A stretch of DNA of 33,215 bases, from the IMG/VR virus record IMGVR_UViG_3300008120_000681, positions 1 to 33,215 of that record; one strand, written 5' to 3'. Within the stretch, counting starts at the first letter, position 1. The number at the start of each line of letters is the position of its first letter. This DNA comes from a virus. Taxonomy: Duplodnaviria > Caudoviricetes. The notes beneath the pieces were generated by a model that saw only the letters and a list, made by a program, of their open reading frames with translations, was not told where the DNA came from and ran no database searches. The position numbers and the translations under genes are program-made. Below are positions 398-26,418 of this stretch, in pieces.

Positions 398-622
398 TCA
401 TATACTCACATAAGAAAGTTGGTCTTTAAGTTGGTCCCACTGTTGGTCAATGAGTTGGTCAAGCTGTTGGTCAGACAGTTGGTCACTATGTTGGTCAAAG
501 GCTTGGTCAGGCAGTAGGTCGCCTATTAGGTTCTTAACCAATATTACTTCGTCATCATATATTAATTCTACATTATAGTATAATGCTTTTTCAATATAAT
601 CTTTAAATTGTTCTCTTGTCAT
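398..622 (-). CDS. Hypothetical protein with C-terminal DQxx tetrapeptide repeats
   Basis: 74-aa ORF whose start overlaps the HNH gene stop; C-terminus DQAFDQHSDQLSDQQLDQLIDQQWDQLKDQL. Confidence 0.6.
   Translation of the reverse strand: MTREQFKDYIEKALYYNVELIYDDEVILVKNLIGDLLPDQAFDQHSDQLSDQQLDQLIDQQWDQLKDQLSYVSI
419..520 (-). repeat. 12-bp period tandem repeat (GACCAA + 6 variable nt on minus strand), about 9 units
   Basis: TTGGTC recurs every 12 nt on the + strand from 419; the last unit is TAGGTC at 515-520. Confidence 0.9.
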
Positions 623-1455: not shown

Positions 1456-1719
1456 TCAACTTGTTTGATTTTGAGTTCTTTCTTTATCATATCGTTCGTC
1501 TTTAACGCCTTCATCATATCCTTCTTCATAGCCTTCTTTGTAGCCATCATTATATCCTTCATTATATACTTTTTCCTCTACACAGTCTTCTACTTCTTTT
1601 CTATAGGACCATAATTCCCTGTCAATATCAAACATTAAATCAGTAAGCTGAATTTGTGTGAACTGCATATTGTTCTTGACCAACCACTGTGATATGATAT
1701 TCTCAATATCCATTGTCAT
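1456..1719 (-). CDS. Hypothetical protein with GYxx repeats
   Basis: YNEGYNDGYKEGYEEGYDEG; coupled to the upstream ORF. Confidence 0.65.
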   Translation of the reverse strand: MTMDIENIISQWLVKNNMQFTQIQLTDLMFDIDRELWSYRKEVEDCVEEKVYNEGYNDGYKEGYEEGYDEGVKDERYDKERTQNQTS

Positions 1720-14319: not shown

Positions 14320-15005
14320 AGGAGAATGATAATGTTCAAGATTACAGAAGAAACCCGTAATGCCGCTATTGAAGCAATGAAGGAAATCTTTCTAAAGGCT
14401 GACGATGGCGCAAAACTTGGCGATTATGAAATTGGTCAGGCATTTGACGTTGCTGTTGACATTGTAAAGAAGCAGTTTGGTATGTAATGTATAAAAGAGA
14501 CAAATGGGAGAAGATTAAAAATCTTATCAATGCTGACATTGCCCATGCTGTCCATTATTCGAGTGACAAACTATATGAACATAGTGTGTCACTTCGTTAT
14601 TTAAAATATATGGAAGCAATAGAAATAGAAGAGGATTGGTATAAAGAATATTTAAGGTATATGGAGCAGGGACTATCGTGAAACTTATGAGAGTCTTAGA
14701 CAAAAAAATGATTATGAATGATGGGTATCAACCAGAACTTATTCTAACAATAGCGTTTCCTATGGAAATTGCTAAAGATGAGTCAGAAGTTATTTCTGGC
14801 GAAGAGTTTGTAAGACAACTTAACGAAGCAATAGAAGAATATGATGAGGAAGTAGAATAATGCATAGGTATAAACATCTTGAGTGGCCACGCCATCCATA
14901 TAAGGTGATGTCTAAACATGTTTGGAAATGGGCATGGACTAGATCATTGCCTATGAGATGGAGAGTTATTCGTGCAAATAATTTCCAGAGAAATTGGAGA
15001 ACAAA

Positions 15006-16697
15006 ATGAAATACACAGCACCAGTAGAGTCAACAACATTTCTTCTTCGTGATGTTCTAAAGTTTGATAATGAACTAACAGAACCTATTCTAAATGAAGC
15101 AGCAAAACTATGTGAAGAAGTTATTGCTCCTGTTAATCAGGAAGGTGATGAAGACGGTTGTCAGTATTGGCACAATACTGTAGGAGATTCTAGTTATCCT
15201 GAAATATATATTCCTGTTTGTTTCCATGACCCATGGGAAAAGTTTAGAGACGGAGGATGGATTGGTTTATCAATTCCTGAACGGTTTGGTGGACAGGGTT
15301 TACCGTTTACACTTGCGGTTGCTGCCAACGAATATGTATCCTCGTCTTGCATGGCTTTCTCTTTGTATCCTGGCATTACTCGTGCAGCTATACAGACCCT
15401 ATTAGTATCTGGTTCAGAATATCAGAAAGCAGAGTTCATTCCTAAATTAGTGACTGGTGAATGGACAGGAACAATGTGTTTGACAGAACCACATTGCGGA
15501 ACTGATCTTGGATTGTTGAAGACCAAAGCAATTCAAGATGACGCTGCTGGTGGTTATAGAATCACTGGTCAAAAGATTTTTATTACTGGTGGTGAACATG
15601 ATTTGACTGATAACATTCTACATCTTGTTCTTGCAAGAGTTGAAGGTGATCCAGAAGGTGTAAAAGGTATTAGTTTGTTTGCTGTGCCTAAGTTTTGGAT
15701 GAACGACGACAAGAAGATTCGTAATAATGTCTCTTGTGGTTCTATTGAAGATAAAATGGGTATTCATGGTTCACCAACTTGCCAGATGTTTTTTGATAAC
15801 GCAATTGGCATTCTTGTTGGTGAAAGATGCCGTGGTCTAAATGCCATGTTTGTTATGATGAATGAACTAAGACTTGGATGTGCGGTACAAGGTCTATCAC
15901 AATCGGAGTTGGCTTATCAGAATGCTTTGGAATATGCTAAAGAACGCAAGCAAGGAACTTCTATGGTTCATCGTGATAGTGGCACTGTTCCTATTATATT
16001 GCATCCTGACGTTCGCCGTATGCTCCTTGATGTTAAATGCATCAACGAAGCTAGTAGGTTACTTATTCTAGAAGCTGCAATGCTTGTTGACGATCAATCG
16101 GATGAAGCGCAGGATCGTCTTGGTCTAATGACTCCTGTTCTTAAAGGTGTTATTACTGATTATGGTGTTGAGAATGCTATCAAGATGCAGCAAGTATGGG
16201 GTGGCCATGGTTACGTTCGTGACAATGGCATGGAGCAGATTGTCCGTGATGCTCGTATTGCCATGGTATATGAAGGTGCTAATGGTATTCAGGCACTAGA
16301 CTTGGTTGGTCGTAAGTTGCCAAAGAATATGGGTCGTGCTATTACACGGTTCTTCAAGGACAGTGCAACATTCTTGACCAGTTCTTATGATAAAGGCATC
16401 AATCATATTGTCCAGCCAGTAACAGTAGGATTGAATGAACTAAAGCAAGCAACTGAATGGTTAGCAGAAAATGGTTTGAAGAATCCTAATGATGCGGGTG
16501 GTGCTTCGTATGATTATATGAAGATGTTTGGACTGGTGTTGCTTGGTATGGCACATATAAAGATTTGTCTTGCTACTGACGATAAGGATAGACACAACAC
16601 CGCAGAATACTTTATGAACCGTATTCTACCAGAAACAAGTATGCTATTGAAGCGTATGCGCTTTGGAAGTGAGACGATGATGAAGGCGAACCTGTGA
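15006..16697 (+). CDS. Acyl-CoA dehydrogenase (FadE/DmdC-like long type)
   Basis: MKYTAP start, GGQGLP, TMCLTEPHCGTDL, GQKIFITGG, KMGIHGSPTC, GGHGY, YEGANGIQALDL. Confidence 0.95.
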   Translation: MKYTAPVESTTFLLRDVLKFDNELTEPILNEAAKLCEEVIAPVNQEGDEDGCQYWHNTVGDSSYPEIYIPVCFHDPWEKFRDGGWIGLSIPERFGGQGLPFTLAVAANEYVSSSCMAFSLYPGITRAAIQTLLVSGSEYQKAEFIPKLVTGEWTGTMCLTEPHCGTDLGLLKTKAIQDDAAGGYRITGQKIFITGGEHDLTDNILHLVLARVEGDPEGVKGISLFAVPKFWMNDDKKIRNNVSCGSIEDKMGIHGSPTCQMFFDNAIGILVGERCRGLNAMFVMMNELRLGCAVQGLSQSELAYQNALEYAKERKQGTSMVHRDSGTVPIILHPDVRRMLLDVKCINEASRLLILEAAMLVDDQSDEAQDRLGLMTPVLKGVITDYGVENAIKMQQVWGGHGYVRDNGMEQIVRDARIAMVYEGANGIQALDLVGRKLPKNMGRAITRFFKDSATFLTSSYDKGINHIVQPVTVGLNELKQATEWLAENGLKNPNDAGGASYDYMKMFGLVLLGMAHIKICLATDDKDRHNTAEYFMNRILPETSMLLKRMRFGSETMMKANL

Positions 16698-17490: not shown

Positions 17491-18340
17491 CAGAATACTA
17501 TTATCCTAATGAAGTCAAAATCGTTGTAGAGAATGGTAAGCGAGTTGCTTATCTTAAAGATAACTGGCGAGAGATTAGAGAAAAGAATGAACGCAAAACA
17601 TCACCAGCGGTGTTGCGTGATACCAAAGTTCCCTGGTCTTTCTGGAAGCCATTGAACTACTATTGGGGAGCATGATATGATTTTACAGAATGAAAAACTA
17701 AACGCTATAATTAACGATGTGCCAAAAGAAAACGTGGAAAACAAAATGAACTGTCTGTTCCTTTTTGGCCTTCTAGAAAAGGTTCTATCTGAAAAAGATG
17801 AAGCAATGAGAAATCAGCGCCTCAATGATATGAAAAACATTTTAGAGTGGAAAGAGACATGATCTTTGACTATAAAGAAGATATTTGTAAATATGTGGTT
17901 CACTCCAAGAGGAGTGGAAACGAGTTCGCCATTTCATTTGCCTCCATGGATGAAGTGGCGAACTATGTTGAAACAGAACAAAATGTAACTGGTGTGTGGA
18001 AAGTTGTAGCACAAAAGATACCACCAGAAGTTTATACTAGAAGGGTTAAACATGAGCCATGATCGCTGGTTAAATACTTTCTGTAACTTTGACTTTGGTG
18101 ATCGGTCTGAAAGATTGTTTGATGGACACGATTTTAAACTATTTGCCAAGACAGTTCGTAGTATAAACAGTAAAATTACAGCAAAATCAATCAGACAGTT
18201 ATATTCTGGTTCTGTGTATCCTAATCTAGAATTGTATCTAGAAATTGAAAAGAGATTGAGAAATGTATGATGAAAATTTTTAGCTTGACATTCCGAATCA
18301 AATATAGTATTATATACATACTGGAAGCAGAAAGAAAGGC

Positions 18341-19426
18341 ATGAATATGAAACATTTCAATAAGATGGCAGCCCAAGGTGACTTCGTAATCATTCGGATT
18401 AATAAACTCCCAGAGAATATTGTTCCATTCGATTCCGAAGACGGAAAATATGTTATTGCACATTCAGAAACAGGACACAATCATGTTATGGATGCTGCTA
18501 ATGTCCTAGCATACAAGCCAGAAGGACTAAGCGACAAAGATATCTTTGAGCTTTTCCTTTCAGTTAATCATGAACTGACACCTGAACAGAAAGCGTTGTT
18601 TCCGGTTTATGTTGAAAAGTGGAAAAAAATTGGTTTGACCACTGGTCCTGTTGATTTCGAAAATGCTAAAAAATCCGTATGTTTAGCATACGAAAAAGTA
18701 GGTTTACCACATCCAACTAAATTCTTTGTGGCTAAAAGTCCGATTGATGCTATCCGTCTGATCAAGGAAATTGATCCGTCAATGGATGCTAGAGCAATTT
18801 TTAACAACATGATCTATGGTAATTCTGATAGTTATTGGCTATCGTATTATCAGTTCATTCGGAATGAACTAAAAGTGGAATGCATACACAAGTTGGATGG
18901 TCTTGTTGAGTTGGCCAATCATTGCGGATGGTTGTCTGTGTATGATGACTGTGTTGTATTCCAGGATCGTCCTGAATTTATAAAGTTTGATGATCAGGAT
19001 AGACTACATTCAGAGAATGGACCTTCTATCCGTTATTGTGATGGATTTTCGGTCTATTCTTGGCATGGTGTCAGAATTCCGAAGGAATGGATTGAAAATA
19101 AGAATAGCGCACTAACACCTCAGATTGCTCTCAAATGGGAGAATATGGAGCAGCGACGTGCAGCCTGTGAAATTCTCGGTTGGGATAGGATTATCCGAGA
19201 ATTGAATGCTACCGTTGTTGATTCGGATTACGACCCTCACATTGGAACATTGGTCGATGTTGAAATTCCTGATGTTGGTAAGGAAAGGTTTCTGAAAGTT
19301 CTTTGTGGAACCGGCCGTGAATTTGCTATTCCAGTTCCTCTTGATATCAATACAGCACTAGAAGCGAATGCTTGGACGTTCGATATTGATCCTAATTTGT
19401 TGCGAGAACTTGAAGTGAGAACATGA
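18341..19426 (+). CDS. DUF6745-like protein with a fused N-terminal QGD/HxETGHxH module
   Basis: N-terminus QGDFVI...AHSETGHNH; then LTPEQ...W...AY...GLP.P...SP; YWLSYY; LHSENGPSIRYCDGFSVYSWHGVRIP; NMEQRR; CGTGR...ALEANAWTF. Own promoter TTGACA-N17-TATTAT at 18285-18313. Confidence 0.7.
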   Translation: MNMKHFNKMAAQGDFVIIRINKLPENIVPFDSEDGKYVIAHSETGHNHVMDAANVLAYKPEGLSDKDIFELFLSVNHELTPEQKALFPVYVEKWKKIGLTTGPVDFENAKKSVCLAYEKVGLPHPTKFFVAKSPIDAIRLIKEIDPSMDARAIFNNMIYGNSDSYWLSYYQFIRNELKVECIHKLDGLVELANHCGWLSVYDDCVVFQDRPEFIKFDDQDRLHSENGPSIRYCDGFSVYSWHGVRIPKEWIENKNSALTPQIALKWENMEQRRAACEILGWDRIIRELNATVVDSDYDPHIGTLVDVEIPDVGKERFLKVLCGTGREFAIPVPLDINTALEANAWTFDIDPNLLRELEVRT

Positions 19427-19437
19427 GAACACAAAAT

Positions 19438-19463
19438 AAAAGGCTCTTGCAAGAGCCTTTTTT
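19438..19463 (+). terminator. Perfect 24-bp palindrome / likely bidirectional terminator
   Basis: AAAAGGCTCTTGCAAGAGCCTTTT is its own reverse complement. Confidence 0.8.
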
Positions 19464-19492
19464 AATTAGATATTAGACTAGAAGGTTTGGAT

Positions 19493-19696
19493 ATGAATAG
19501 TGTTAAAGAACAAGTCTACTATCAAGTCTGGGATCAAGTCTACTATCAAGTCTGGAATCAAGTCCACTATCAAGTCAGTAATCAAGTCTTGGATCAAGTC
19601 AGGGGTCAAGTCTGGGGTCAAGTCAGTAATAAAGTCCGGGATCAAGTCTTGTATCAAGTCTTGGATCAACTAAAAGAAGACATAGAAAATGAATAG
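19493..19696 (+). CDS. QVxx-repeat mini-protein 1 (67 aa, 13 repeats)
   Basis: MNSVKE-(QVxx)13-QLKEDIENE. Confidence 0.75.
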   Translation: MNSVKEQVYYQVWDQVYYQVWNQVHYQVSNQVLDQVRGQVWGQVSNKVRDQVLYQVLDQLKEDIENE

Positions 19697-19880
19697 TGTT
19701 AAAGAACAAGTCCAAGATCAAGTCAGTAATCAAGTATTGTATCAAGTCAGGAATCAAGTCAGGGGTCAAGTCTTGCATCAAGTCTTGTATCAAGTCAGGA
19801 ATCAAGTCCACTATCAAGTCAGGAATCAAGTCAGGGGTCAAATCTGGGATCAACTAAATGAAGACCTAGAAAATGAATAG
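19689..19880 (+). CDS. QVxx-repeat mini-protein 2 (63 aa, 12 repeats)
   Basis: 8-nt ATGAATAG overlap with unit 1. Confidence 0.75.
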   Translation: MNSVKEQVQDQVSNQVLYQVRNQVRGQVLHQVLYQVRNQVHYQVRNQVRGQIWDQLNEDLENE

Positions 19881-20064
19881 TGTTAAGTATCAAGTCTGGA
19901 AACAAGTCTGTGATCAAATCATGTATCAAGTCCACTATCGAGTCTACTATCAAGTCAGTAATCAAGTCTTGCATCGAGTCAGGAATCAAGTCTGGGATCA
20001 AGTCAGTAATAAAGTCCGGGATCAAGTCTGTGATCAACTAAAAGAAGACCTAGAAAATGAATAG
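19873..20064 (+). CDS. QVxx-repeat mini-protein 3 (63 aa, 12 repeats)
   Basis: Same caps and overlap. Confidence 0.75.
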   Translation: MNSVKYQVWKQVCDQIMYQVHYRVYYQVSNQVLHRVRNQVWDQVSNKVRDQVCDQLKEDLENE

Positions 20065-20260
20065 TGTTAAAGAACAAGTCTGTGATCAAGTCTTGGGTCA
20101 AGTCTACTATCAAGTCTGGAATCAAGTCCACTATCAAGTCAGTAATAAAGTCCGGGTTCAAGTCTGGGATCAAGTCTGGAATCAAGTCTTTGATCAAGTC
20201 TGGGATCAAGTCTTGTATCAAGTCTTGGATCAACTAAAAGAAGACATAGAAAATGAATAG
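20057..20260 (+). CDS. QVxx-repeat mini-protein 4 (67 aa, 13 repeats)
   Basis: Same caps and overlap. Confidence 0.75.
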   Translation: MNSVKEQVCDQVLGQVYYQVWNQVHYQVSNKVRVQVWDQVWNQVFDQVWDQVLYQVLDQLKEDIENE

Positions 20261-20456
20261 TGTTAAGTATCAAGTCTGGGATCAAGTCTGGGATCAAGTC
20301 TGGGATCAAGTCTGGAATCAAGTCTTTGATCAAGTCTACTATCAAGTCAGGGATCAAGTCAGTAATAAAGTCCGGGTTCAAGTCTGGGATCAAGTCTGGA
20401 ATCAAGTCTTTGATCAAGTCTGGGATCAACTAAAAGAAGACCTAGAAAATGAATAG
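20253..20456 (+). CDS. QVxx-repeat mini-protein 5 (67 aa, 13 repeats)
   Basis: Same caps and overlap. Confidence 0.75.
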   Translation: MNSVKYQVWDQVWDQVWDQVWNQVFDQVYYQVRDQVSNKVRVQVWDQVWNQVFDQVWDQLKEDLENE

Positions 20457-20712
20457 TGTTAAGGATCAAGTCAGGAATCAAGTCAGTGATCAAGTCTGGA
20501 ATCAAGTCAGGGTTCAAGTCCAGGATCAAGTCTTGTATCAAGTCCACTATCAAGTCAGTATTAAAGTCAGGAATCAAGTCTGGGATCAAGTCAGGAATCA
20601 AGTCTGGGATCAAGTCAGGGATCAAGTCAGTAATAAAGTCCGGGTTCAAGTCTGGGATCAAGTTAGGGATCAAGTCAGGGATCAAGTCTGGGATCAACTA
20701 AATGAATCATAG
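20449..20712 (+). CDS. QVxx-repeat mini-protein 6 (87 aa, 19 repeats)
   Basis: MNSVKD-(QVxx)19-QLNES; overlaps the start of 20702-20947. Confidence 0.75.
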   Translation: MNSVKDQVRNQVSDQVWNQVRVQVQDQVLYQVHYQVSIKVRNQVWDQVRNQVWDQVRDQVSNKVRVQVWDQVRDQVRDQVWDQLNES

Positions 20713-20947
20713 CGAATTAATACAACAGTTACACGAGTTAGCAGATTGGGTAGAGAAACATAATAATGTTCATTGTCCATCTGTTCCTCGTAAAGCAGCA
20801 TATACTATTGAGGCAATTGAAGAAGAGAACCATATATTAAGGTTATCTCTAAATAAAAAGTATTTGTCTCTGAGAGATATATATGATAGATATGTTGGTA
20901 ATGTGAAAGTGTTCATCTATTTGACAAGGAAAAAATGGAAGATTTAG
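20702..20947 (+). CDS. Hypothetical protein
   Basis: Coupled to the last array unit. Confidence 0.6.
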   Translation: MNHSELIQQLHELADWVEKHNNVHCPSVPRKAAYTIEAIEEENHILRLSLNKKYLSLRDIYDRYVGNVKVFIYLTRKKWKI

Positions 20948-21291
20948 ATCAAATATTACTAGAACAATTACATGCAGCAAAAAATGGACATAAATTGATT
21001 AAGAGACTAAAAAAATTAATAAGAAAAGATAAAGGTCTGGATGCTTTAGAGCGCCAGAATAAAATTAGAATAGAATTTTTCGAAAATATGATAGAAAATA
21101 AAGAACTTCTAAGACAAAAATCAAAAAAGAAAAAGAAAAAAGACAGTGATCTATTGTCTCGTAATCCATTTTATGAAGCATATAGGTATACAGTTCTTGC
21201 CTCTGTATATGGATATACAGTTATGTCATCAGCAATGAAAGATTACTGGTCTTTTTTTAGAAAGACAAAGGATGAAAAAGATAACTCTTAA
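20935..21291 (+). CDS. Hypothetical basic protein
   Basis: AAGGA RBS; Lys-rich. Confidence 0.6.
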   Translation: MEDLDQILLEQLHAAKNGHKLIKRLKKLIRKDKGLDALERQNKIRIEFFENMIENKELLRQKSKKKKKKDSDLLSRNPFYEAYRYTVLASVYGYTVMSSAMKDYWSFFRKTKDEKDNS

Positions 21292-21493
21292 TAATTGTGT
21301 AGAAGTTCCAGAACAAATTGTAATTGCCGCATGGGAGGCGGTTGATTGTAATGAAGAAAGTGGATTTGGTAAAGTGATACGAGCATCACTGGAATTTAAA
21401 TCTGCTAATATGACTCCTGTTTTTATATTAAACCGAAGCAATATGGAAATGTATTGCGTTGCTCGTGAGACTTTTGGTAAGAAACTTCATTAA
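21272..21493 (+). CDS. Hypothetical protein
   Basis: Overlapping operon arrangement; 73 aa. Confidence 0.6.
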   Translation: MKKITLNNCVEVPEQIVIAAWEAVDCNEESGFGKVIRASLEFKSANMTPVFILNRSNMEMYCVARETFGKKLH

Positions 21494-21505
21494 TGGAGGT
21501 GTCTA

Positions 21506-21736
21506 ATGTCTAGAAGTTATAAGAAACATCCTGGTGGTGGTTTTACAACTAGAATGAGTGATAAACCAGGAAGAAAGATAGATCATCGTCGTTACCGTCA
21601 TTATTATAAAGAAATGATTCGTCATGAAGATTATGATAATATAGAACCCCCTAATTATAAAGAAAATCCGTGGAACTGGCCAAAAGACGGTAAATGTTAT
21701 TGGCCAGATGCATCTGATAAAGATATGCGAAAATAG
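21506..21736 (+). CDS. Small basic phage protein (MSRSYKK family)
   Basis: GGAGG RBS; MSRSYKKHP...W...KDGK...MRK. Confidence 0.7.
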   Translation: MSRSYKKHPGGGFTTRMSDKPGRKIDHRRYRHYYKEMIRHEDYDNIEPPNYKENPWNWPKDGKCYWPDASDKDMRK

Positions 21737-21739
21737 TAT

Positions 21740-21770
21740 TTGACATTCCTATAGGGTTATGGTATAAATA
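21740..21770 (+). promoter_or_regulatory. Composite sigma70 / T4-late promoter of pmoC
   Basis: TTGACA-N17-TATAAATA. Confidence 0.7.
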
Positions 21771-21842
21771 ACATTAAGAGTGGCGGTTTCCGTCACCAAG
21801 GCGAAACTGACCACTTGATTTTTTCTCAATGGAGAATGTTAT

Positions 21843-22604
21843 ATGAGTACAGTAACTACTACAGTAACTGCTGAAAAGGCAGAGGTTGTTGATCTACGTG
21901 GTATGTGGATCGGTCTTGGTCTACTTAACGTCTTCTATCTAATCGTTCGCATTTATGAACAGGTCTATGGCTGGAGGGCCGGTCTTGATTCATTTGCACC
22001 AGAGTTTCAGACATATTGGATGTCTATTCTCTGGACAGAGATTCCACTAGAACTAGTGTCAGGACTAGGACTTGCTGGTTATCTTTGGAAGACAAGGGAC
22101 CGAAATATTGACGCCGTTGCTCCTCGTGAGGAAATGCGTCGTTTAGTTACTTTAGTTCAGTGGCTAGTTGTGTATGCCGTTGCCATTTATTGGGGCGCAT
22201 CCTTCTTCACTGAACAGGATGGAACTTGGCACATGACAGTAATTCGTGATACTGACTTTACTCCAAGTCATATTATTGAATTCTACATGAGCTATCCAAT
22301 CTACTCAATCATCGCAGTTGGCGCATTTTTTTATGCTCGCACTCGTATTCCATACTTTTCACATGGATACAGTCTAGCATTTCTGATTGTTGCTATTGGA
22401 CCATTTATGATTATTCCAAACGTTGGTCTTAACGAATGGGGTCATACATTCTGGTTCATGGAAGAACTATTCGTAGCACCACTACATTGGGGCTTCGTGT
22501 TCTTTGGCTGGATGGCACTTGGTGTATTTGGTGTTGTTCTCCAAATCCTTGGTCGTGTTCATGCTCTTGTTGGGCGTGAAGGCGTAGCACTACTAACAGA
22601 ATAA
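21843..22604 (+). CDS. pmoC: Particulate methane monooxygenase subunit C
   Basis: GLDSFAPEFQTYW, FFTEQDGTWHMTVIRDTDFTPSHIIEFY, PNVGLNEWGHTFWFMEELFVAPLHWGFV; multiple TM helices. Confidence 0.97.
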   Translation: MSTVTTTVTAEKAEVVDLRGMWIGLGLLNVFYLIVRIYEQVYGWRAGLDSFAPEFQTYWMSILWTEIPLELVSGLGLAGYLWKTRDRNIDAVAPREEMRRLVTLVQWLVVYAVAIYWGASFFTEQDGTWHMTVIRDTDFTPSHIIEFYMSYPIYSIIAVGAFFYARTRIPYFSHGYSLAFLIVAIGPFMIIPNVGLNEWGHTFWFMEELFVAPLHWGFVFFGWMALGVFGVVLQILGRVHALVGREGVALLTE

Positions 22605-22610
22605 AAAAGT

Positions 22611-22640
22611 GAGGGGGAGGTATTGACTTCCCCCTCTTTA
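22611..22640 (+). terminator. Hairpin after pmoC (probable terminator) overlapping the hsp20 -35 box
   Basis: GAGGGGGAGG-TATTGA-CTTCCCCCTC followed by TTT. Confidence 0.6.
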
Positions 22641-22649
22641 CCCCCATAT
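22623..22649 (+). promoter_or_regulatory. RpoH (sigma32)-type heat-shock promoter
   Basis: TTGACT-N13-CCCCATAT upstream of hsp20. Confidence 0.65.
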
Positions 22650-22655
22650 TATGTT

Positions 22656-22712
22656 TACGTTGCCGAAAGGAACGTATTATTATAGTCTCGCTTAATAGGA
22701 GAAATGTAAATG
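22656..22712 (+). promoter_or_regulatory. ROSE-like RNA thermometer
   Basis: Hairpin TACGTT(G)CC-GAAA-GGAACGTA, then TCTCGCT-TAAT-AGGAGA pairing the SD with a bulged G (UYGCU motif). Confidence 0.65.
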
Positions 22713-23243
22713 ACAAACGATCCATTCCGTGCTTTTCATGCAGACCCACTACTATCAAAGTATCTTGTAGGGTTTGATAATATGTTTCAGCGAATTGCGG
22801 AAGCTAATGAATATCTACCAAAAATTCCTGCATATCCGCCATACAATGTGAAAAAAATTGATGATGAACATTATATTATTGAAATGGCTGTTGCAGGGTT
22901 TGGAAAGCACAATCTAGATATTGAAATGAAAGACAGTGTTCTAACTATTACTGGTAGTTCAGAATCAGAAGAAGGTGACTATCTTCATAAGGGTATTGCT
23001 AATCGTGCTTTCACTCGTAAATTTAATGTTGCTGATACAGTAGAAGTAAAAAATGCAGAACTTACTAATGGTATGTTGAAAATCTTCCTTGAACGTTTTG
23101 TTCCAGAGGAAAAGAAACCGAAGAAGATTGACATCTATGACCCGTTCGGAGTACAAGAAGCTACGAAACAGTTAATTGATGAAACTGGCAAGACATGGGG
23201 TAATATTGCACAAAAAGTAGCTGATGCAATTACACCGAAATAA
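22710..23243 (+). CDS. hsp20: Small heat shock protein Hsp20 (IbpA-like)
   Basis: YPPYNV, IEMAVAGF, YLHKGIANRAFTRKF, NAELTNGMLKIFLE, PEEKKPKKI. Confidence 0.95.
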   Translation: MTNDPFRAFHADPLLSKYLVGFDNMFQRIAEANEYLPKIPAYPPYNVKKIDDEHYIIEMAVAGFGKHNLDIEMKDSVLTITGSSESEEGDYLHKGIANRAFTRKFNVADTVEVKNAELTNGMLKIFLERFVPEEKKPKKIDIYDPFGVQEATKQLIDETGKTWGNIAQKVADAITPK

Positions 23244-23266
23244 TCTTAAAATAGTCTTCTAAATAG

Positions 23267-23296
23267 AGAGAGGGATTTATCTTCCCTCTCTTTTTT
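23267..23296 (+). terminator. Rho-independent terminator after hsp20
   Basis: AGAGAGGGA-TTTATCT-TCCCTCTCT followed by a T run. Confidence 0.8.
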
Positions 23297-23313
23297 ATTA
23301 TAGGAGATAAATT

Positions 23314-23979
23314 ATGGCTACATTTAAAGAGGCATTCGCTGCTGCCAGAAAAGCAGGAAAAGAAACATTCATTTATGACGGTAAACTTTATACAACACAA
23401 GTAGCTGTAAAAGAAGCTGATGAAACTAAGTTTCTTGATGTTACTAATACAGTAAAAGAAAGTGCTGTCCCAACAGTTTCAAGACTAAAGAAAAACAACT
23501 GGCCCGCACAATCACAACTCAGAGCAAAGTTTGGTGTTCCTGATTATGGTGGAACATTCAAGAAGCATATGACACAGGTTAATCTTCCATATACTATGTG
23601 GATGGACGATCTTAAGATTACTAAATGCTGGATGAATAAGTCTTGTTCTGAATCTCTTGTTCGTGTTCTAACTTATGTTTGGGACGAGAACGGTAGAGAT
23701 TATGACAAGATTAAGGCACAGCAGTTACACATCTTTTCTGGTTCATGGAACATCCGCAACATGCGTGGTGGTAAGTCTCTTTCAACACACGCTTTCGGTG
23801 TTGCTATTGATATTTGTGCTCCTTATAATGCTCTTGGAAAGAAGCCCGGATATAACAAGTATTCATTCACTAAAGACTCTTTAATTGTTAAAGCATTCAA
23901 GGAAGAAGGTGCCGTTTGGGGTGGTGATTGGGAACGCCGACCAGATGGAATGCATTTTCAATTTGCTACAGTGGGATAA
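23314..23979 (+). CDS. Peptidase M15-family endolysin / cell-wall peptidase
   Basis: RNMRGG...STHAFGVAID and WGGDW...DGMHFQ Zn-binding motifs; upstream CTAAATA at 23259-23265. Confidence 0.85.
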   Translation: MATFKEAFAAARKAGKETFIYDGKLYTTQVAVKEADETKFLDVTNTVKESAVPTVSRLKKNNWPAQSQLRAKFGVPDYGGTFKKHMTQVNLPYTMWMDDLKITKCWMNKSCSESLVRVLTYVWDENGRDYDKIKAQQLHIFSGSWNIRNMRGGKSLSTHAFGVAIDICAPYNALGKKPGYNKYSFTKDSLIVKAFKEEGAVWGGDWERRPDGMHFQFATVG

Positions 23980-24463
23980 CTTTCTCACATTTTTTAACAT
24001 GCCTTGAGTAATTGGCCGGGTCTACTATTTTTCCGCAATGGATACATGGTTTAGACTTGGCCATCATTCTTTGTTGTAATTGTTTCTGAAATTCTGGGTT
24101 TCTGAAAGGGTTATTGGGTGAATCGTTCAAAAGTTTTATTCTTTCTGAGACTTTTGATCTATCAATATTAGAATAATCAATATGTTTAGAAGTATCACCA
24201 CCATCACCAGATTCGACCATAAGATTGGCCCAGTTATCTGAATCAACAACATTCCACATTTCAGAGTATACTCTGCCTTTTTCTGCAATTTCTTCTTTTG
24301 ATTCGGATTGAAAAATAATTTTGGTAGTTACATCATATTTATGTTTCTTGATATGATTTTTCCATCTAGTGCCTGATCCTTTGTATTTGTAAGGATCTTT
24401 CTTGGTATAACCTAGATATTTGAGATTTGTGATGTTGTGAGTTTTGACATATAAATAATACAT
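23966..24463 (-). CDS. GIY-YIG (Seg-like) homing endonuclease with C-terminal Zn-finger-like motif
   Basis: YYLYVKTH...KYLGYT...YKGSG.RW...WANL; CIHC...H...C; antisense to its neighbours. Confidence 0.85.
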   Translation of the reverse strand: MYYLYVKTHNITNLKYLGYTKKDPYKYKGSGTRWKNHIKKHKYDVTTKIIFQSESKEEIAEKGRVYSEMWNVVDSDNWANLMVESGDGGDTSKHIDYSNIDRSKVSERIKLLNDSPNNPFRNPEFQKQLQQRMMAKSKPCIHCGKIVDPANYSRHVKKCEKVIPL

Positions 24464-24627
24464 GCTGATGCTCCTTATAAGCGTTAGAGTAGGTAAGGAT
24501 TCCCGTCCTGTGACCTACACTTATTTAGTATTTTTGAATTTTGGTGTGTCGTAACTATAAAAAAAATTGACTTATACAAGAAAACAATATATAATGTATA
24601 TGCGGTAAATAATAGAAGGATAGTATT

Positions 24628-26418
24628 ATGGATTGGAGAAAAATTGCTCCTTGGGTGTTGTTTGTTCTTGCTGGTATTTTTATGTTTCAGATGTGGAACG
24701 AAACCTCACACAAAACTTACTCAAGAGAAATTGGATTCAGCGAACTCGTTGCTCAGATTGACGAGGGAAGAGTCCATGATCTGACTATTGCAGGAAATCA
24801 GGTTACTGGTCATTTCACTGATAATAGATCATTTAACACATATGTTCCATCAATCGGTAGTTTTATGGAACAGATCAAAGGTAAGAAGTTGCAAGTATCT
24901 GCAACTCCACCAGAAGAAACTGGATTTATCACTAACCTTGCAATCAATCTACTTCCCGTTATTCTGTTCTTTGGTATCTGGATTTGGTTGTCACGAAGAA
25001 CTAATGGCGGCATTGGCCGTGGTCCTATGACTATGGGTAAATCAAAAGCAAAGATGCTTTCAGAAGAAGAAATTAATGTTAAGTTTGATGACGTTGCTGG
25101 TGTTGATGAGGCCAAAGAAGATCTAGAAGAAGTTGTAGAATTTCTGGCAGCACCACATAAGTTTCAAGCAGTTGGTGGTAAAATTCCCAAGGGAGTTTTG
25201 CTTGTTGGTCCTCCAGGAACTGGTAAGACATTGCTTGCTAAAGCAGTTGCTGGTGAAGCAGGTGTTCCTTTCTTCCATCTATCAGGTTCAGACTTCGTTG
25301 AAATGTTCGTAGGTGTTGGTGCATCTCGTGTGCGTGACATGTTCGAACAGGCAAAGAAGAATGCTCCTTGCATTATCTTCATTGACGAAATTGATGCTGT
25401 TGGACGTAATCGTAATGCTGGTATCAGTGGCGGTAATGATGAACGTGAACAGACTCTAAACGCTCTACTTGTAGAAATGGACGGTTTCAATGACAACGAA
25501 GGTATCATCATTATCGCTGCGACAAATCGTGTGGATGTGCTTGATCCTGCCTTGCTTCGTCCTGGCCGTTTTGATCGACAGGTTACTGTTAGTAATCCAG
25601 ACATTGTTGGACGAGAGAAAATTCTAAAGGTTCATAGCAGAGCAGTTCCACTAGGAGCAGACGTTGATCTTAGAACTGTTGCTAAGGGAACCCCTGGTTT
25701 CTCTGGTGCTGATCTAGCAAATCTTGTCAATGAAGCAGCATTGCTTGCCGCTCGTCGTTCTAAGAGAATTGTTACTAAGAAAGAATTTGAAGATGCACGT
25801 GATAAAATTCTTATGGGTGCAGAACGTAGATCTCTTCTAATGTCAGAAGAAGAAAAGAAAATGACTGCTTATCATGAAGGTGGACATGCTCTTGTTTCTC
25901 TGAACATGGAAGGTTCTGTTCCTATTCACAAGGCAACAATCATTCCTCGTGGTCGTGCATTGGGTATGGTTCAGTCTCTTCCAGAGCGTGATCAGATTTC
26001 TCAGTCTTATAAGGAAATGCTTGCTTATCTTGCCATGGCAATGGGTGGACGTGCTGCTGAAGAATTGGTATTTGGTCCAGATAATGTTACATCTGGTGCT
26101 GCTGCTGATATTCAACAGGCATCAAAGATTGCCCGTGCTATGGTTACACAGTATGGATTTTCACCACTAGGTAATGTAGCATATACTGATCCGAATGCTG
26201 ATGTATTCCATGGTCCAAAGGTTGCAGAAGAAACTCAGCGACTTATTGATCTTGAAATAAAGAAGATAGTTGATACTGCATATGCTACTGCCAAGGGTAT
26301 TCTGACAAGAAAGAGAGATCAACTTGATACTCTTGCTAAAGGGTTGCTTGAATATGAAACACTTTCAGGTCAGGAAATTGTTGATCTACTAGACGGAAAG
26401 ATACCAGTCAGGGAATAA
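24628..26418 (+). CDS. ftsH: ATP-dependent zinc metalloprotease FtsH
   Basis: Two TM helices, [38 protein letters not shown]; promoter TTGACT-N17-TATAAT at 24567-24595. Confidence 0.97.

Follow-up and report, generated by a model that had tools for sequence, protein, structure and literature searches.

What does a phage gain from six small genes, each coding for a run of four-residue repeats, placed behind the gene of a DUF6745 protein that has no such repeat? The question is raised by positions 18,341 to 20,712 of a 33,215-nucleotide stretch of viral DNA (IMG/VR record IMGVR_UViG_3300008120_000681), the whole of which we call the window. A first-pass annotation, made from the sequence alone, proposed that a repeat found inside other DUF6745 proteins has here been moved out and multiplied, leaving one repeat-less protein (the scaffold) with six free partner peptides of the Gln-Val-x-x (QVxx) type. 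We consider it rather probable that the peptides do take the place of the internal tract, acting in trans and lending the scaffold outer surfaces that can be exchanged. The true layout begins with a His-rich partner gene of 118 amino acids (aa) and the gene of a DUF6745 protein of 288 aa without a tract; after a hairpin come six QVxx mini-genes, which are coupled. The features in the window are as follows.

18285..18313, + strand: sigma-70-like promoter candidate with 11/12 consensus matches, upstream of the partner gene
18341..18574, + strand: partner gene (118-aa, His-rich), first 78 codons, from sequence comparison with intact copies
18575..19426, + strand: tract-less DUF6745 scaffold gene, residues 6-288 of the 288-aa homologue P0001, from Pfam PF20530
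19438..19464, + strand: hairpin with T-run, a palindrome and candidate terminator between scaffold and array
19493..19696, + strand: QVxx mini-gene 1, 67 aa
19689..19880, + strand: QVxx mini-gene 2, 63 aa
19873..20064, + strand: QVxx mini-gene 3, 63 aa
20057..20260, + strand: QVxx mini-gene 4, 67 aa, used for the co-fold
20253..20456, + strand: QVxx mini-gene 5, 67 aa, merged with gene 4 as a single hybrid gene in contigs L086 and L425
20449..20712, + strand: QVxx mini-gene 6, 87 aa, overlapping the next open reading frame (ORF) start at 20702

Most of what the first-pass annotation observed here stands, namely the layout, the spacing within the scaffold, the mini-genes and the hairpin; its 361-aa gene does not. 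A detector written for the mini-genes finds six ORFs in 19493-20712, of 63-87 aa and each overlapping the next by 8 nucleotides, versus none in each of 30 base shuffles, and these six are the only QV tracts in the window. The palindromic element said to separate scaffold and array is a hairpin at 19438-19461 with its T-run on the + strand. No promoter-like site was found between the hairpin and the first mini-gene, and the sigma-70-like sites in 18000-21000 are not in excess (6 observed versus 9.9 in shuffles), so the promoter listed above is a candidate only. In several relatives the scaffold gene is likewise followed by a hairpin; in L007, L028 and L056 the first mini-gene begins at or beside the scaffold stop codon.

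The gene in front of the array is clearly of the DUF6745 family. The ORF at 18341-19426 matches Pfam DUF6745 (PF20530) with 104.3 bits against a cut-off of 27, over profile positions 3-198 of 206. It had been read as one 361-aa gene with about 25 non-repetitive residues where a repeat might be expected. That spacing is confirmed (24 residues from the SP motif to YGNSD; the S-to-Y spacing is 26 in 99 of the 109 homologues with both motifs matched, of 120 listed), and the absence of the tract is real, holding in P0001 and relatives. The best 120 of 938 homologues, however, are 282-305 aa long and none has 361, the closest being P0001 with 99% identity over 80% of the query. Contig L001 is 99.96-100% identical to the window but has 162 extra bases at 18574/18575, which give separate genes of 118 and 288 aa. 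What the window contig lacks is the partner's last 40 codons, its stop, a 24-nt spacer and the first 5 codons of the DUF6745 gene. The same 162 letters are present at this point in contigs of runs X1, X2 and X5, X6 not bridging it; contigs of X1-X4 span the intact form without a gap, with no joined form there, and L425 and L426 are intact at the junction. Altogether the 361-aa sequence is on one contig, the window's, and the 288-aa form on six. The 361-aa ORF is therefore rejected as a real gene, being most likely an in-frame fusion made by a 162-base gap whose bases are present in every other copy checked. Because the joined form is on one contig and the intact form on all others checked, an assembly error is the most likely origin of the gap, with a rare real deletion possible in a comparison that was made at the contig level.

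If the mini-genes derive from an internal repeat, that repeat should be visible in relatives, and the first-pass annotation had placed a long tetrapeptide tract of many homologues at just the position of the short spacing. This is borne out. QV, SV, QL and AV tracts lie between the SP and YG-x-HD motifs in several of 79 viral loci and likewise in the GenBank phages L083 and L084, and loci from genome records add AT, NL and AA tract types and non-repetitive inserts. The window scaffold has no tract between these motifs, only its 24 non-repetitive residues. Complete internal tracts have a median of 28 units (range 8-85, n=55); the free genes have a median of 14 (n=181).

The free and internal forms of the repeat show a strongly uneven distribution. 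We used a pool of 130 viral loci (the best 80 of 230 and the best 80 of 150 matches, some contigs entering twice), clustered on the C-terminal part of the protein. At 90% identity there are 80 clusters, 43 tract-less, 34 tract-bearing, 2 partial and 1 with a 47-residue gap. Mini-genes lie nearby in 35 of the 43 tract-less clusters versus none of the 34 tract-bearing ones, which is the co-occurrence that had been anticipated; at 70% identity the counts are 23/26 versus 0/22. A bias towards loci with mini-genes is possible in the second set, whose query included the repeat; when only the first set is counted, mini-genes accompany 46 of 63 tract-less loci. As a control, 80 Hsp20 loci (930 kb) gave two positives, both from the window's phage, and 0/78 from other phages. 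A scan starting from the repeat returned 130 loci; the 80 listed rows that had wide flanks, on 68 contigs, entered the analysis, and 50 short loci were set aside. Among the 68 contigs, 21 are tract-bearing, none with mini-genes, and 21 are tract-less, 20 with them; 18 have mini-genes with no DUF6745 in view, and 8 have neither. In 16 of those 18 the match is within 1.2 kb of the contig end. The 80 genome loci yielded no mini-genes with a detector that scores six dipeptide types only; 38 of them have long inserts, many of the AT, NL or AA types that lie outside its scoring. On a quick tree the tract-bearing and tract-less states change 5 times, at least 3 of them forced. The tract-less L255, with a QL mini-gene, is placed among QL tract-bearing genes by branches of moderate support, which hints at a second detachment of the tract.

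Can a detached peptide still find its place on the scaffold? The scaffold is modelled with good confidence (predicted local distance difference test, pLDDT, 90.9). When mini-gene 4, the one of six that was folded, is modelled together with it, the pair scores 0.82 versus 0.23 for the best control, and replacing the scaffold brings the score to 0.00. At least 94% of the contacts are common to the runs, with a peptide pLDDT of at least 82. Of 157 solved complexes, 116 reach the mark for such co-folds, as do 2 of 215 mismatched pairs; the mark is a rough guide here, where our own alignments were used. In the model, the first repeat position is in contact in 14/15 units, the second in 15/15, the third in 11/15 and the fourth in 4/15, so that the invariant Q-V faces inward and the fourth residue mostly outward. 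The contacts fall on scaffold residues 1-172, and residues 173-288 are free. The co-folding that the first-pass annotation called for has thus come out positive for this peptide, and supports, at the level of a model, binding of the mini-gene 4 product to the scaffold.

The array itself consists of 82 units of 12 bases, of 30 types, and its variation is focused. The entropy per base is 0-0.38 bits at bases 1-6, 0.66-1.61 bits at bases 7-11 and 0.10 bits at base 12, which is T in 81/82 units; bases 7-11 are those that change the two variable residues. In an ORF-blind scan of 31 tract-less loci, with expected stops calculated from base frequencies, the third codon of the unit is an in-frame stop in 1/1703 cases versus about 164 expected, and the fourth in 0/1703 versus about 12. 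The other frames have a stop in 101/181 tracts (+1) and 154/181 (+2), and a Met stands no more than 12 residues before the tract in 161/181 mini-genes. Since in-frame stops are avoided, the repeats look like coding sequence and not like silent donors. CAAGTC is dominant in 26/31 of these loci, the others encoding Gln-Val as CAGGTC, CAAGTG or CAAGTA; the codon choice is uniform inside an array and differs between some loci. We infer from these sequence patterns selection at the protein level together with frequent recombination within arrays.

These numbers bear on the suggestion, also made in the first-pass annotation, that the array is a silent reservoir of DNA donors which diversifies the DUF6745 gene by gene conversion or through a retroelement. 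The fixed silent positions, with CAAGTC in most loci, could mark a motif acting at the DNA level. Yet other Gln-Val codings are used at other loci, the avoidance of stops and the well-placed Met are those of genes, and there is no repeat DNA in the scaffold gene on which donors could act; outside the six mini-genes, the window has no recipient with homologous repeat DNA. Silent donor cassettes are free of coding constraint, which the stop counts do not allow here. A diversity-generating retroelement varies adenines between template and variable repeat, whereas adenine is almost invariant at unit positions 2 and 3, and all bases occur at the variable positions. No reverse transcriptase is among the 23 window proteins scanned, which are part of the ORFs in a 33-kb piece of the genome. 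No RNA holder is listed for the locus. We regard a donor reservoir as very improbable.

A further question is whether the variation means anything. The peptides might bind the scaffold as equivalent structural subunits, with no specificity, their number and variety reflecting either a need for dosage or neutral processes, with slippage of the 12-bp repeat and its duplication in tandem. Silent sites are homogenised within the array, as frequent recombination would have it (the Val codon is GTC in 78/80 units versus 20/173 in five large genes of the window); genes 4, 5 and 6 share 43-77 identical bases, the 77 of genes 4 and 5 corresponding to 20133-20209 in gene 4; and a few residues dominate position 3 (W, R, S) and position 4 (D, N). 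All of this sits well with equivalent subunits. It fits less well that 82 units are of 30 types with change confined so largely to bases 7-11 while base 12 stays T, that the fourth residue points mostly away from the scaffold in the model, and that some relatives retain 10-23 mini-genes. On this balance we think equivalent subunits an unlikely account, if one to be taken seriously.

The comparison of arrays between strains that the first-pass annotation proposed shows near-identical assemblies with five or six genes. L086 equals L425 over 1,900 bases, and each has five genes versus six in the window and L001. Their hybrid gene has the front of gene 4 and the end of gene 5, joined inside the 77-base identical stretch. 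L425 is a distinct variant, because comparison with L004 shows 8 differences in 4,190 upstream bases. In another phage, represented by five contigs (L009, L010, L012, L014 and L015), the number of genes and units varies, differences that could be assembly collapse. L086 has a further peculiarity outside the array. There is no difference from the window in 20353-25500, followed by about 97 differences in 25500-26414, within the 3' part of ftsH, a pattern that resembles a patch of recombination.

The partner gene had been overlooked in the first-pass annotation, and it is near-universal beside the real scaffold. It lies within 4 kb of DUF6745 in 84/89 tract-less and 36/37 tract-bearing loci, and the intact 118-aa form adjoins DUF6745 in L001, L425 and L426. 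H39, E41, H44, H46, H81, D86, H88, E105 and D116 (numbering of a 116-aa form) are conserved in 98 relatives, and five conserved His with several acidic residues suggest that the partner binds metal. Clustering at 50% identity gives 6,830 partner-like clusters. The partner has no family in the local Pfam; its label in the Atlas is PF31129, which is nameless. No longer, fused forms were seen among 78 candidates, which is weak evidence, and in the Atlas a 50-member DUF6745 cluster of 366 aa aligns to the whole partner (template modelling score 0.72), suggesting natural partner-DUF6745 fusions. No third conserved neighbour gene was found at DUF6745 loci.

Structural comparison names neither protein. 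The partner model is all-beta (pLDDT 88.9); against solved folds its best Z is 3.2, and Foldseek gives no match. For the scaffold, Foldseek against the PDB gives no match (best E 0.47), and the best VIA Z is 4.2 (root-mean-square deviation, rmsd, 2.6 over 48 aligned). Profile searches of PDB sequences return nothing under E 0.05. In the viral library there are 3 scaffold matches at E under 0.001, all to DUF6745 or uncharacterised proteins. A WGR domain at scaffold residues 208-280 was considered and rejected as within background (Z 3.7, rmsd 4.4, 67 aligned). The N-terminal part of the scaffold entered the fold searches as part of the whole model. With no match among solved folds, assignment of function from fold was given up for both proteins.

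Several loci show other arrangements of these genes. In the Microcystis phage Ma-LMM01, gp175-gp174 (L424:3150-4681) are a partner and a DUF6745 protein with a non-repetitive insert, amid DNA replication genes; gp175 matches the partner profile at E 1e-19, and gp37 of the prophage prophiGD102-1 has the partner motifs. Ma-LMM01 is a cultured phage and a possible experimental model for the family. At L005:4734-5752 (- strand), the partner and several mini-genes are on the strand opposite to the scaffold gene; therefore, the module can be divided between transcription units. L455-L460 and L466 encode tandem long proteins, two or three per contig and without a partner gene, in which many N-terminal repeats of about 25 residues, which we take to be DUF4116-like, are fused to DUF6745.

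How the parts may work together can be outlined as follows. The six mini-genes would be the detached and multiplied form of the internal repeat of other DUF6745 proteins. Each product is predicted to be a small protein that wraps the front part of the repeat-less scaffold, its Gln-Val face packing on residues 1-172, the fourth residue mostly outward and residues 173-288 left free. Slippage and unequal crossing-over between the 12-bp units would reshuffle genes as well as units. The work itself would fall to the scaffold and to its His-rich partner, which probably binds metal, whereas the bound peptide, if Tweety gp54 is a fair analogy, would determine the host protein to be engaged or evaded. 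Our best guess is that the system serves in phage-host conflict. In its fullest form the proposal is that a scaffold and a metal-binding partner are retargeted by a gene library of peptides of about 60 residues. Each peptide would be clipped on via its invariant stripe of Gln-Val and would display outward a two-residue code shuffled by recombination, so that a single phage could engage or evade a number of host defence variants simultaneously. We put this forward only tentatively, as a possibility that could well prove wrong.

The analogy is close in some respects. The repeat unit of Tweety gp54 is 12 bp long, fixed at its first six bases and at base 12, and encodes two residues that vary (PMC2884959). 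How well the phage escapes the Phrann gp29/gp30 defence is tuned by the number of repeats (PMC9262239). Both gp54 and the window array have two fixed codons in the 12-bp unit with the last two residues variable. However, base 9 is fixed in gp54 and variable in the array, and gp54 is one polypeptide of AAxx units, whereas the array is six separate ORFs. Searches with sequence profiles of the DUF6745 N- and C-terminal parts did not match gp54 at E under 10, and no Pfam family was found for it. By sequence, gp54 is an analogue and not a homologue of the DUF6745 system. The DUF6745 relative L378 has an AA-type tract like that of gp54; among genome records, L378, L366, L375, L380 and L383 have DUF6745 tracts of the AA type (as in gp54) and the AT type. 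The four-residue tract appears to be common to unrelated scaffolds.

A number of points weigh against the proposal that the peptides serve the scaffold in trans. The co-fold covers one of the six peptides; it may echo intramolecular packing learned from tract-bearing relatives, and halves of split proteins and close cousins of true partners also tend to pass the mark. Conservation at the predicted interface does not exceed that of the other residues within 1-175 (0.68 vs 0.69, p 0.58). On the quick tree, 40 of 44 tract-less rows form one clade (SH-aLRT, the Shimodaira-Hasegawa-like approximate likelihood ratio test, 92), and because most tract-less rows share it, the Fisher p of 1.5e-14 for the co-occurrence overstates the number of independent events. 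The flank seen was 472 kb for tract-bearing versus 1,238 kb for tract-less loci. The five-gene form could be an assembly collapse over the 77 identical bases, and the role in conflict is argued from analogy. Finally, 8 of the 43 tract-less clusters have no mini-gene in the fetched DNA, and some arrays are dispersed or distant, L112 lying at least ~18 kb from the DUF6745 locus L066 on the same contig. The last two observations are what one would expect if the peptides acted alone, as decoys for host proteins recognising the DUF6745 repeat or as inhibitors of such proteins, their proximity to the scaffold being shared history only, and the hairpin between scaffold and array in the window would agree with this. 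Such decoys, however, would serve tract-bearing phages too, where free genes are found at 0/34 clusters, and the co-fold that passes with the scaffold fails with its replacement. We judge scaffold-independent decoys to be improbable, and continue to favour peptides that dock on the scaffold in place of its tract.

Among known systems, the nearest are the tract-bearing DUF6745 proteins themselves (PF20530, phrog_31813), including gp38 of the Mycobacterium prophage prophiGD102-1 (L083), UOF77368 of MW202476 (L084) and L072. They agree with the window scaffold in their N- and C-terminal parts, likewise have the His-rich partner gene as a neighbour, and use a 12-bp repeat of the same type. They differ in that the tract is internal, whereas the window phage has six separate genes of 63-87 aa instead. 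The Flavobacterium leucine-rich repeat (LRR) locus and the Photorhabdus L-S pairs have tandem variable copies reshuffled by recombination, and in L-S the variable parts set pairwise binding (PMC10392669). They share with the array the tandem variable copies, but are bacterial and much larger proteins; the available portion of that paper contains no detached internal module binding back to one scaffold and no mention of the DUF6745 family. A literature search, with most subscription papers and supplements outside its coverage, returned no paper with the term DUF6745, no published function, and no description of the scaffold/mini-gene arrangement, including that of Ma-LMM01 gp174. The arrangement is real, widespread and testable, and apparently unpublished.

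DUF6745 is widespread among phages and prophages, as is its partner, and neither protein matches a solved fold. With the variable tract in the form of small separate genes, its role can be tested directly, by pull-downs and by swapping peptides; with some 30 units inside one protein this is hard. Should the peptides determine specificity, they would be a compact binding code that is shuffled naturally, and phages would have a new means, free of a retroelement, of diversifying conflict proteins. If they carry none, the locus would still show clearly, going by the model, how an internal repeat can leave its protein and bind to it again in trans.

The window is one contig, a piece of the larger genome of a T4-like phage. 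Its proteins include a family B polymerase, UvsX, a DnaB-like helicase, Hsp20 and PmoC, and host-like genes flank the locus (14994-16697 and 21843-26418: acyl-CoA dehydrogenase, pmoC, Hsp20, M15 peptidase and ftsH). A pmoC adjoining Hsp20, together with T4-type polymerase, UvsX and helicase genes, has been described for the pmoC-phages of methanotrophs (PMC7674155), which the predicted gene content matches. What is shared with these phages is the genomic setting; the passages of that paper on 'repeat' and 'hypothetical' do not describe a scaffold/mini-gene locus.

Two further small ORFs in the window have repeats. At 1456-1719 (- strand), an 87-aa ORF has a short EGY-type four-residue repeat and a weak Yae1_N match under the cut-off; as far as seen, it is unrelated to the QV family. 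A 74-aa ORF at 398-622 (- strand) has a C-terminal degenerate DQx tetrapeptide tract with a 12/24-bp period. It scores below the threshold of the mini-gene detector and may be a distant seventh repeat gene, of the QL type.

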